Assembly (NCBI GenBank): GCA_045125595.1
Contig: JBGVNN010000024.1
Coordinates: 12,608-76,607, forward strand
From: Candidatus Egerieisoma sp.
Lineage (GTDB): Bacteria > Bacillota > Clostridia > UBA1212 > UBA1255
Reading direction: 5' to 3'
Length of the DNA stretch: 64,000 bases
Within the stretch, counting starts at the first letter, position 1. Each line of letters opens with the position of its first letter. Positions 5,151 through 7,613 of this stretch are shown one piece after another. Position numbers and translations under genes: made by a program. The notes under the pieces are model-generated. The model worked only from the letters and a program-made list of their open reading frames with translations, searched no databases and was not told the origin of the DNA.

Positions 5151-7613
5151 ATGAAAATTGTATTTTCAACCAAGAATGTAAGCAGAGCGTCATTTCTTGA
5201 TACTTGCCGTTATGCCTATGACTACGGGTTTGAAGGTTTTGAAATATATGATGCAATTAAAGAGAGAAACTCGCATCATGACAGTATTTTGAGAAAAGAC
5301 CGCATAGCTGATGCCAAAAGAAAACTTCACAACAGAAACCTTGCCGTTTCCGCTCTGCGTATGCCTGTTTCTATAGAAAAAGAAGAAATAAGCACAGATT
5401 TAATAATAAAATATGTAGATATAGCGGCTTCTTCGGGGATTTCGAATGTTATAATTCGAGTTGAAGAAAAGGTCAGCTTCGATATTTTAGAAGAAAAACT
5501 TTTAAAGCCAATAAAAAAAGCAGAAGAAACAGATGTTAATATTTTGTTTGAAACAGTAGGATTTCTTGCAAATACCGAAAATGTGATTGCTATTATTAAT
5601 CACTTCGCATCTGCGGCTTTAGGTGCATCTTGGAATGTCAGAGGTACATATTTTGATGCAGGAGAAAGTGCAGAAGCTACAATAAAAACTCTGGGTGCAT
5701 ACATCAAATATGTACGCCTCGGAGATATGAAAGACGGCAAAACAGTATTGATAGGAGAAGGTGATCTTGAAGTAGAAAAACTCCTTAATTCGCTTTCTTC
5801 ACTTAACTATGAGGGCTTTATTTGTGTAGCTTGGAACGAAGAAATCAGTGATGCAGATATCGTACTTACGCACTTCACAAATTATATTTCCGCTCTTAAT
5901 CGTGAGAAAAAAACATTTGACCATGCTTATTATAACAGAGCAAAAACAGGTACTTTTGTATGGAAAAAGTACGATGTTATTGAAGCTACTTTCTCAGATG
6001 TGCTCGATACAATGGCAGAGACATATCCCGATCAATACGCATTTAAGTATCCAACATTGGACTATACAAGAACATATGAACAGTTCAGACGAGATGTGGA
6101 CGAATGTGCCGCAGCGCTCATTTCATTGGGAGTAAAAGCAGGCGACCACGTTGCTGTTTGGGCGACAAATGTTCCGGAGTGGTTTATAACTTTCTGGGCA
6201 ACCACGAAAATCGGCGCTGTCTTGGTAACAGTTAATACGGCTTATAAGATTCATGAAATTGAATATTTGTTAAAGCAGTCAGATACACATACTCTTGTTA
6301 TGATAGAGTATTGTAAAGATATTAATTATAAAGAGATAATCGAGGAACTTTGCCCCGAACTTAAAACGTTAACACCGGGTAAACCTTTGTATTCAAAAAA
6401 ATTACCGTTTTTGCGTAATGTTGTTACAGCAGGTTTTTCAATGGATGGATGTCTCACATGGGAACAAATGCTTTCTCGTTCACAACTTGTTCCGAGAGAA
6501 GAAGTTCGCAGACGCGCATCTTTGGTTAAACCTGATGATGTATGTAATATGCAATATACATCAGGTACAACAGGATTCCCGAAAGGCGTTATGTTGACAC
6601 ACCGCAATATTGTTAACAACGGTAAAACAATCGGAGACAGAATGGATTTGTCAACAGCAGACCGTATGATGATTCAAGTGCCTATGTTCCACTGCTTCGG
6701 TATGGTTCTTTCTATGACATCTATGATGACACATGGCGGAACGCTTTGTCCTATCCCTTATTTTTCTCCCAAATCTTCACTTTCTTGTGTGAATGATGAG
6801 AAAATTACATGTTTTAACGGTGTGCCTACTATGTTTATTGCAATGTTTAATCACCCTGATTTTGCAAAGACAGATTTTTCTTATATGAGAACGGGCATTA
6901 TGGCAGGAGCAAACTGTCCCGCTGATCTTATGCGACGTGCTTCCGTAGAAATGAACATGAAAGAAATTATTTCCGTTTACGGACAGACAGAGGCATCACC
7001 CGGTTGTACAATGGGAGAAGTAAATGAAGACCTTGACCACAGAGTAGAAACTGTCGGCAGCGCTTTCCCCGGAGTTGAATGTAAAATAATCGACCCTGAG
7101 ACAGGTGATGAACTTCCTGCAGGTGAAAGCGGTGAATTCGTTGCACGCGGTTTCAATATAATGAAGGGTTATTACAAAATGCCAGAGGCAACAGCTCAAG
7201 CGATTGACTCTGACGGATGGCTCCACTCGGGAGATATTTGCATGAAAACAGAGGACGGTTACTACAAAGTTACAGGTCGTCTCAAAGATATGATAATTCG
7301 CGGCGGTGAAAACCTCTACCCCAGAGAGATTGAGGAATTTTATTTAACAAACCCAAAAGTTCGTGACGTTCAAGTAGTAGGTGTACCGGACGAAAAATAC
7401 GGAGAAGAATGTTGTGCTTGGATTATTTTGCATAAAGGCGAAACTGCTGATGAAACGGAAATGCGTGAATACGGTAATGCTTCGATTGCAAGACACAAAG
7501 TGCCAAAATACTTCATGTTTGTTGATGAATTCCCGATGAACGCTGCGGGTAAGATTTTAAAATATAAAATGAGAGAAGAATCCGCAGAGCGTTTGGGATT
7601 AAAGAAAAATTAA
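5151..7613 (+). CDS. Fusion protein: N-terminal xylose-isomerase-like TIM barrel (sugar phosphate isomerase/epimerase family, ~270 aa) plus a C-terminal AMP-dependent synthetase/ligase (~550 aa).
   Basis: RBS GAGGAGG precedes ATG 5151, and the stop of the upstream gene is 2 nt before it. The adenylation motifs [25 protein letters not shown] and [36 protein letters not shown] are present. Confidence 0.7.
   Translation: [820 protein letters not shown]

Follow-up and report, generated by a model that had tools for sequence, protein, structure and literature searches.

Fibre-degrading Clostridia of the rumen and gut depend on isovalerate, isobutyrate and 2-methylbutyrate, and hence these acids are fed to dairy cattle. 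The last of them, 2-methylbutyrate, is the acid with the carbon skeleton of isoleucine. A pairing of a PF01261 barrel with an adenylating enzyme is found in petrobactin biosynthesis, where AsbF, a 3-dehydroshikimate dehydratase, is paired with AsbC. Rumen organisms make leucine by carboxylation of isovalerate and subsequent amination, as described in PMC7356843; in the literature that we searched, the activation step of this branched-acid carboxylation route is not assigned to ligase genes. MacsMa from Methanosarcina acetivorans prefers 2-methylbutyrate (PMC10455477), and true leuA genes, for example in Geobacter, are under T-box control by tRNA-Leu (PMC2700814). We have analyzed a stretch of 64,000 nucleotides from Candidatus Egerieisoma sp. 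(contig JBGVNN010000024.1, positions 12,608 to 76,607; hereafter, the window). It contains a gene for a xylose-isomerase-like triosephosphate isomerase (TIM) barrel fused to an AMP-forming ligase, and this gene is preceded by a LeuA-like gene, pseudo-LeuA, and by a T-box leader RNA with a Leu specifier. We suggest, with moderate confidence, that the fusion is an AMP-forming isovalerate-CoA ligase, induced by leucine starvation, the product of which enters reductive carboxylation to leucine; the substrate and the direction of the flux are what we infer from the locus and its relatives. The barrel, which has lost most of its catalytic residues, is probably not a second catalyst.

Domain structure and occurrence of the fusion

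The fusion is encoded by an uninterrupted open reading frame (ORF) on the forward strand, from the ATG at 5151 to the stop codon ending at 7613, giving a protein of 820 aa. A GAGGAGG ribosome-binding site lies just 5' of the ATG, within the last codons of the pseudo-LeuA gene. Three Pfam domains are found above their gathering scores: AP_endonuc_2 (PF01261) at residues 20–229, with 46.2 bits against a gathering score of 31.1, and, both far above theirs, AMP-binding (PF00501) at residues 287–675 with 319.2 bits and AMP-binding_C (PF13193) at residues 726–801 with 57.1 bits. The best 120 database matches are all 817–823 aa long, have the identical three-domain order, and come from many independent assemblies. 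In a scan of one genome per species, the full-length fusion was verified in at least 80 distinct species genomes, with at least 595 candidate relatives, and the ORF is intact (815–824 aa) in 76 of 77 species-level genome loci.

These results bear on an earlier, sequence-only reading of the window, which had described the gene as a rare fusion of a TIM barrel with a complete AMP-dependent ligase. The covalent fusion is real, as the intact ORF and the three domains demonstrate, and the adenylation motifs quoted at that time, including YGQTE, are present in the sequence. The possibility that a frameshift or sequencing error had joined two genes was checked and is not borne out, since the architecture recurs in independent assemblies and nearly all loci are intact. 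The word "rare" has to be given up, because the scan yielded the 80 or more species genomes given above. No publication describing the architecture was found in the literature searched, most subscription journals being outside its scope.

The carriers are mostly metagenome-assembled genomes (MAGs) of Clostridia from the ruminant and human gut, labelled Acutalibacteraceae, Oscillospiraceae, Christensenellaceae or Eubacteriales, together with a few bins labelled Spirochaetales. Two MAGs with the latter label (loci L061 and L063 of our set) contain a full-length fusion and pseudo-LeuA about 72% identical to the Clostridia copies, and these represent either horizontal transfer or a binning error.

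The N-terminal barrel

The N-terminal domain was modelled with AlphaFold2 from an alignment of the window domain with 99 canonical relatives. The model has a mean predicted local distance difference test score (pLDDT) of 87.3 and a predicted template modelling score (pTM) of 0.83, and shows eight β-strands alternating with helices. The best 50 Foldseek matches listed from the PDB are all xylose-isomerase-like barrels, with 10–17% identity. The top-ranked neighbor is UlaE (3CQJ; template modelling score (TM) 0.75, E = 1e-13), and others are L-ribulose 3-epimerase, Art22, AsbF (3DX5, rank 11) and IolI. A search of the PDB with the sequence of the domain gave only marginal matches (E = 0.04). Prediction and structural comparison thus agree on the TIM-barrel fold that had been proposed for this region.

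Is the barrel an active enzyme? Its canonical relatives, which are mostly stand-alone proteins of about 268 aa with some fused to the same ligase subfamily, have a near-invariant set of eight metal and catalytic residues, E134, D162, H164, H165, H189, K191, D192 and E227 in the numbering of the window protein. Only E134 and D192 are kept in the window barrel, and the other six are replaced (D162N, H164R, H165G, H189R, K191G and E227A). Within the fusion clade, however, the replacements are not random: W161, N162, R164, R189 and N229 are near-invariant, and T166 and G191 are invariant. The conserved pocket residues of the W161–N229 group map to the C-terminal ends of the predicted strands, and the ratio of nonsynonymous to synonymous substitution rates (ω) for the barrel is about 0.09, a rough value, as the synonymous divergence is saturated. 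Since the replacement residues are conserved and under purifying selection, the pocket is remodelled and not decayed. The exchange of two His for Arg in the pocket suggests binding of an anionic ligand over metal catalysis. Judging from these residues, the barrel is probably a ligand-binding or docking domain with a conserved arginine-containing pocket.

The ligase half

The ligase half appears, from its motifs, to be the sole obviously competent catalyst of the fusion. It has the core motifs A3 (TSGTTGxPKG), A5 (YGxTE), A7 (GD) and A8 (RxKDxxxxGGxN) and the A10 catalytic lysine. The core of these motifs is invariant in 27 diverse family members (T470–G479, Y610–E614, G694–D695, R710–N721 and K801), with a few variable flanking positions. 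Among the NCBIfam models, PRK12583 ("fatty acid CoA ligase family") scores best, with 680.2 bits over model positions 16–557 of 558, a family which we take to be ACSF2-like. The closest solved structures are 8WEU/8WEV, malonyl-CoA synthetase and FadD13, and these matches (E of about 1e-80 to 1e-70) are confined to the C-terminal two thirds. A PRK12583-type ligase lies beside the liu cluster of P. putida, and a paper suggests that it might transfer CoA onto isovalerate; we set this lead aside, as it is no more than a suggestion. Across the family loci, the ligase half is 77–96% identical, with ω of about 0.03 (rough for the same reason as above). The barrel (44–83% identity) and pseudo-LeuA (45–84%) both diverge about three times faster than the ligase, and at an equal pace.

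The pseudo-LeuA partner

The first gene of the operon encodes a protein with an HMGL-like DRE-TIM barrel (106 bits) and a LeuA_dimer domain (107.6 bits). Its score is far under every LeuA equivalog cut-off, the best being 251 bits against a cut-off of 532. In the alignment with the solved LeuA structures 3EWB/3RMJ, the LeuA motif DTTLRDGEQ is replaced by ADITLKKLSED, FSPEDATR by FSALDATR, and HCHDDLGMATAN by QVSDHINMAVAS. Five catalytic or metal-binding residues of LeuA (Arg, Asp, Glu, His and His) are replaced family-wide in 75 pseudo-LeuA sequences. The leucine-binding regulatory region, LeuA_dimer, is the best-conserved part of the same 75 proteins, with a mean identity of 82% vs. 64%. By its residues, pseudo-LeuA is a catalytically dead LeuA that retains the leucine-sensing regulatory domain.

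In the window, the stop codon of pseudo-LeuA is 1 nt from the ATG of the fusion. In 74 of 80 loci, the gene immediately 5' of the fusion is that for pseudo-LeuA; of the six others, most are cut off by the end of the contig or have a pseudo-LeuA that escaped the ORF clustering. The two genes overlap or are separated by at most 2 nt in most loci, which argues that they are translationally coupled. Furthermore, the divergence of pseudo-LeuA tracks that of the barrel, with r = 0.97 and a partial r of 0.84 when the ligase is controlled for.

The exact 462-aa gene call is present in public data, where its JGI name is 2-isopropylmalate synthase. This name is probably a misannotation, and metabolic reconstructions from MAGs could wrongly score the first step of the leucine pathway as present.

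The T-box leader and the operon

The positions of the features of the operon, and of examples of two gene types from related loci, are collected in Table 1. The match of the leader to the T-box covariance model is full length (model positions 1–219). The specifier, read from the cmscan alignment and the sequence, is CUC (Leu) at 3531–3533, in the context GAA-CUC-A (3528–3534), and the T-box motif is at 3640–3655. The gene preceding the operon ends in a terminator at 3341–3371. The leader is predicted to head an operon of pseudo-LeuA and the fusion and to respond to uncharged tRNA-Leu.

Table 1. Positions of the operon features in the window and of selected genes in related loci (L numbers)
Feature	Sequence	Position	Strand	Evidence or remark
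Predicted sigma-70-type promoter	Window	3404..3432	+	TTGACA-17 nt-TATACT, 11/12 consensus matches; directly upstream of T-box
T-box leader RNA, Leu specifier	Window	3441..3687	+	Rfam RF00230, 123.9 bits vs. gathering score 93
Intrinsic terminator of T-box attenuator	Window	3693..3720	+	12-pair stem, then T-run; directly after T-box sequence
Pseudo-LeuA, 462 aa, first operon gene	Window	3761..5149	+	Pfam HMGL-like (DRE-TIM barrel) and LeuA_dimer
Fusion, N-terminal xylose-isomerase-like TIM barrel, residues 1–258	Window	5151..5924	+	PF01261, AlphaFold2, Foldseek; pocket remodelled, metal ligands lost
Fusion, conserved barrel-ligase linker, YYNRxKTGTFxWKKYD...	Window	5925..6008	+	Motif common to degenerate and canonical fused clades
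Fusion, AMP-binding (ANL) large domain	Window	6009..7175	+	Pfam, 319 bits
Fusion, AMP-binding_C small domain	Window	7326..7553	+	Pfam; includes A10 lysine K801
CysK-type cysteine synthase	Window	7638..8573	+	TIGR01139, 369 bits vs. cut-off 351; 24 nt downstream of fusion
AgcS-family amino-acid:cation symporter	Window	8593..10125	+	TIGR00835, 441.6 bits; about 20 nt after CysK
HTH-cupin-ligase	L064	9913–12488		
HTH-cupin-ligase	L064	12555–14454		
HTH-cupin-ligase	L067	9344–11897		
Amidohydro_2 protein	L036	8480–9286		
Amidohydro_2 protein	L067	8462–9292		
Amidohydro_2 protein	L089	4380–5240		

The fusion is followed by genes for CysK and AgcS. There is no terminator between the genes of this stretch, nor a strong promoter between the fusion and CysK, and CysK is probably co-transcribed with the fusion. 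CysK is near the operon in only about 8 of 80 loci and is not a conserved partner. Likewise, AgcS is not a conserved neighbor across the loci but a window-specific member of the operon; it is the last gene before trpS, the separate unit of which begins with a perfect promoter at 10129–10158. Both CysK and AgcS are apparently under the Leu T-box, and a leucine-starvation response of a cysteine synthase is without explanation.

Specifiers and sister ligases in related loci

The specifier codon was extracted by a rule calibrated on cmscan alignments, and the counts cover only the loci with an extractable codon. In 51 loci, the T-box before pseudo-LeuA and the barrel-ligase has the Leu codons CUC (47 loci) and CUG (two) or CCC (two), and never a codon for Ile or Val. 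The leader alignments printed by cmscan show a Leu specifier in seven of seven distant loci. An AUC (Ile) specifier was considered for distant pseudo-LeuA loci and rejected, as this AUC is in Stem II and the cmscan alignments give CUC. The CCC (Pro) codon replaces CUC in two MAGs of Ructibacterium sp. (L028 and L045), in an otherwise identical context (GAACCCACCGCGGAG), and is either a true change of specificity or a single-base variant. The unit headed by the Leu T-box of L073 comprises pseudo-LeuA, the fusion, IlvE and the gene after it. The leader of this locus is in tandem, with a full Leu T-box at 2042–2244 followed by a partial T-box at 2342–2473 (64 bits), before pseudo-LeuA.

Many loci also contain a second kind of multidomain ligase, of about 755–800 aa, composed of a helix-turn-helix domain (HTH_3), Cupin_2 and a MacsMa-like AMP ligase (HTH-cupin-ligase), each with its own T-box. 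The specifier is AUC (Ile) in all nine T-boxes before the first type and GUA (Val) in all 18 before the second, and in neither type is it ever a Leu codon. The Ile-controlled ligase matches the structure of MacsMa (PDB 3ETC) with E = 4e-188. The fusion of a DNA-binding domain to an adenylating enzyme recalls enzyme/repressors of the BirA type.

Pathway genes in related loci

Genes for a branched-chain aminotransferase (BCAT), a P-loop protein and a 2-ketoisovalerate-type ferredoxin oxidoreductase (VOR) are found within about 6 kb of the pseudo-LeuA-fusion pair in 18 of 80 loci. The block is mostly on the same strand as the pair and is often directly adjacent to it. The scores are above the cut-off for BCAT (NF009897, 506 bits vs. 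cut-off 307) and VorB (NF005507, 539 bits vs. cut-off 399), and the β and γ subunits are present too. In five loci (L038, L039, L043, L049 and L056), pseudo-LeuA, the fusion, BCAT, the P-loop gene and VorBAC form one same-strand block. The Leu T-box and the dead LeuA, together with BCAT and VOR in related loci, indicate branched-chain amino-acid salvage.

The block of the L038 type is preceded by DnaB_2-like and DnaC/IstB-like genes and an ORF of 96 aa. The protein encoded between BCAT and VorB is a conserved 228-aa P-loop nucleoside triphosphatase similar to ParA/NUBPL (L056, 9535–10221, and orthologues), which may deliver iron-sulfur clusters to the oxidoreductase. An Amidohydro_2 protein (PF04909) of about 268–286 aa, with intact HxH, is encoded next to the barrel-ligase pair in about 24–28 loci. 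A Gut-1 small RNA is found in L079 at 9870–9946.

Canonical barrels with the ligase

Barrels with the canonical residues adjoin an orthologous ligase as separate genes, in the order ligase then barrel, often with an Amidohydro_2 gene, and some canonical barrels are fused to the ligase. The unfused orthologous ligase is 52–55% identical to the ligase half in the window and starts at about residue 273 of the fusion. One organism has the unfused canonical pair beside an unfused pair of an HTH-cupin protein and a MacsMa-like ligase. Since the barrel and the ligase are found together repeatedly, either as one fused gene or as two neighboring genes in both orders, the two modules are functionally linked, and to this extent the earlier expectation of a coupling between them was sound.

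There is no T-box or pseudo-LeuA in the canonical-residue loci that were examined, a small number (L081–L086, L089–L092 and L093). Thus, in the loci sampled, with few canonical ones among them, the loss of the catalytic set of the barrel coincides with the Leu T-box and pseudo-LeuA. We considered whether the partnership with the T-box and pseudo-LeuA might be ancestral, and rejected this because it is absent from all of these loci. A thiamine pyrophosphate riboswitch is found at 9640–9752 of L093, just downstream of the canonical fused ligase.

Other features of the window

Just upstream of the operon, at 842–3310, is a gene for an 822-aa protein with about seven ricin-type β-trefoil lectin repeats and an endonuclease/exonuclease/phosphatase domain. 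The gene at 12856–14406 encodes 516 aa with an uncharacterised nucleotidyltransferase domain, NTP_transf_5 (141.9 bits), and the two ORFs upstream of it, 11272–11877 and 11877–12608, have no Pfam match. A ribosomal protein L10 leader is at 30826–30951.

Proposed mechanism

In the mechanism that we propose, uncharged tRNA-Leu would stabilise the antiterminator of the T-box, and pseudo-LeuA and the fusion would then be produced together. The ligase would convert isovalerate (3-methylbutanoate), ATP and CoA to isovaleryl-CoA, which VOR, with reduced ferredoxin and CO2, would carboxylate to 4-methyl-2-oxopentanoate, and BCAT would convert this keto acid to leucine. Pseudo-LeuA would give leucine feedback on the ligase, possibly via the barrel domain. 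The anabolic direction is favored because the ligase is AMP-forming and would be induced by starvation. Related gene clusters hold the set of genes expected for such a pathway, namely an AMP-forming ligase, a VOR-type oxidoreductase and BCAT. The parallel with the MacsMa-like ligases under Ile and Val control favors, by analogy, three branched short-chain acids as the substrates of the three ligases.

What is the function of the two dead enzymes? The dead barrel and the dead LeuA are probably regulatory or sensor modules, and pseudo-LeuA probably provides leucine feedback control of the ligase, through an interaction that we infer. A leucine-dependent brake acting via the barrel fits with the retention of the leucine-sensing part of pseudo-LeuA, the coupled production of the two proteins, and the tracking of their divergence. 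A more general scheme, which we put forward only tentatively, is that the Leu, Ile and Val T-boxes each switch their own branched-acid CoA ligase, each with a recruited non-catalytic sensor module, the dead barrel with the dead LeuA for Leu and HTH-cupin for Ile and Val. The dead LeuA might then serve as the receptor for leucine and, by docking on the dead barrel, turn the ligase off. The two pseudo-enzymes would in this case make up a feedback switch on top of the control at the RNA level.

Several observations weigh against the isovalerate pathway to leucine. Only the 18 of 80 loci have VOR and IlvE close to the pair, in L034 they are outside the T-box unit, and a search of the 64-kb window found no VOR, IlvE, Amidohydro_2 or second ligase. 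A T-box was not detected at E ≤ 0.01 in L038, L043 and L049, which were scanned, despite their full enzyme set, and therefore the regulation in loci of the L038 type must differ. The Amidohydro_2 neighbor of the fusion (about 24 loci) has no role in the proposed pathway. The ligase is under the cut-off of every NCBIfam model (for PRK12583, 680.2 vs. 832 bits), its NCBIfam and PDB sequence matches are generic and give no usable specificity, and it is only 25–26% identical to the MacsMa subfamily, being of a different ANL subfamily. As for the barrel, its conserved pocket could still allow metal-independent catalysis, and its covariation with pseudo-LeuA may reflect the comparison of two fast sequences with one slow one. 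The canonical relatives that were examined have neither T-box nor pseudo-LeuA, and thus the barrel-ligase pair may originally have had a role without any link to leucine.

Alternative explanations

The ligase might activate isovalerate at leucine scarcity to provide the isovaleryl-CoA primer of iso-branched membrane fatty acids, in the manner of MbcS, and not for leucine. Leucine starvation would deplete this primer too. Short branched acyl-CoA synthetases such as MbcS of S. aureus are documented to supply branched-chain fatty-acid synthesis (PMC10026030, PMC11167679), and in C. thermocellum a ferredoxin oxidoreductase connects branched keto acids with branched fatty acids (PMC13011478). However, the occurrence of three amino-acid-specific T-boxes on three ligases and the clustering with BCAT fit amino-acid synthesis better, and a leucine-sensing pseudo-LeuA fits feedback on leucine supply. 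Furthermore, T-boxes typically control genes for the supply of aminoacyl-tRNA. We thus consider the primer role unlikely, although it is the strongest competitor of the leucine pathway.

A slightly less probable explanation is that the ligase activates some other leucine-linked acid, such as acetate, a 2-hydroxy or 2-oxo acid or the product of the Amidohydro_2 protein, or that a new step of the leucine pathway is catalyzed in a non-canonical way by pseudo-LeuA and the barrel acting together. The specificity of the ligase cannot be read from its sequence, the Amidohydro_2 protein with intact HxH adjoins both the fusion and the unfused pair, and purifying selection acts on both dead barrels, the pockets of which are conserved. 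Against this, the neighborhood suggests no other acid, the MacsMa-like ligases under Ile and Val control point to branched short-chain acids, and Claisen condensation would require the Arg, Asp, Glu, His and His that pseudo-LeuA no longer has.

The sequence-only reading had taken the covalent linkage to imply a coupled isomerisation or dehydration and carboxylate activation, that is, an active isomerase, epimerase or dehydratase handing its product to the fused ligase, as in the logic of AsbF and AsbC. The fold is indeed that of a xylose-isomerase-like barrel, with AsbF among the structural neighbors, the barrel occurs with the ligase in fused and in unfused form, and the pocket residues of the fusion clade are conserved; the canonical relatives, which keep the full ligand set, may work in this way. 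In the window protein, though, only two of the eight catalytic and metal residues remain, and the sequence of the barrel changes about three times as fast as that of the ligase. The context of Leu T-box and dead LeuA, with BCAT and VOR in related loci, needs no sugar-type isomerisation. Coupled chemistry is thus disfavored, and for this fusion we regard it as improbable, a little more so than activation of another acid. Finally, that the fusion is a frameshift or misassembly artefact, or its N-terminal part a decaying functionless remnant, is scarcely credible: a truncated ORF of 512 aa in one of 77 loci (L066) and a canonical fused gene split into two gene calls on a metagenome contig (L093) have to be set against the ORF of 815–824 aa in the other 76 species genomes, the architecture in hundreds of independent assemblies, the low ω of the N-terminal domain and its near-invariant pocket residues.

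If the pathway from isovalerate to leucine is correct, the T-box ligase trio, the VOR-type oxidoreductase and BCAT would be gene markers for dependence on branched acids. A widespread misannotation would be flagged as well, since the dead LeuA passes for 2-isopropylmalate synthase and leucine prototrophy is then wrongly assumed in metabolic models. The locus would also be a testable case in which an active enzyme has recruited two pseudo-enzymes for its regulation. As a caution, catalytic residues should be checked before a domain fusion is read as coupled chemistry.

Comparison with known systems

The ligase half resembles the PRK12583 ANL acyl-CoA synthetases in its full-length collinear match, in all core motifs and the A10 lysine, and in having PF00501 and PF13193. 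The fusion differs from that family by the additional N-terminal TIM barrel of 275 residues, the Leu T-box and the pairing with pseudo-LeuA, and its score is under the family cut-off. With MacsMa (3ETC) it would share the activation of a short branched acid, and the ligases with Ile and Val T-boxes are close homologues of MacsMa; the accessory domain of these sister ligases is HTH-cupin, whereas that of the window fusion is a TIM barrel.

The barrel has the same fold as UlaE, the ketose 3-epimerases, IolI and AsbF (TM 0.70–0.75, Foldseek probability 1.00) and keeps E134 and D192. It differs from the PF01261 barrels in its low identity of 10–17% and in having two Arg where His is expected. The likeness to AsbF and AsbC is that a PF01261 barrel and an ANL enzyme are encoded together. 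AsbF, however, is a functioning metal enzyme, the product of which is the acid for its ligase, while the barrel in the window has lost its catalytic set, and the context of AsbF and AsbC is siderophore synthesis, while that of the window is amino-acid salvage.

Pseudo-LeuA is like LeuA in its HMGL-like barrel and LeuA_dimer domain and in the control by a tRNA-Leu T-box, as for true leuA genes. It is unlike LeuA in that the catalytic and metal residues are all replaced and in that its gene is coupled to the ligase fusion and not to leuBCD. The likeness to the reductive carboxylation route of the rumen is that the gene clusters hold the ligase, VOR and BCAT and that the carriers are rumen and gut Clostridia. 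In the literature searched, which included few subscription journals, there is no paper on T-box-controlled branched-acid ligases or on accessory pseudo-enzyme modules of such ligases. Thus, enzymes and riboswitches of these classes and the physiological pathway are already known, whereas the assignment of genes to the pathway, the trio of ligases under Leu, Ile and Val T-boxes, and the two pseudo-enzymes as accessory modules are new.

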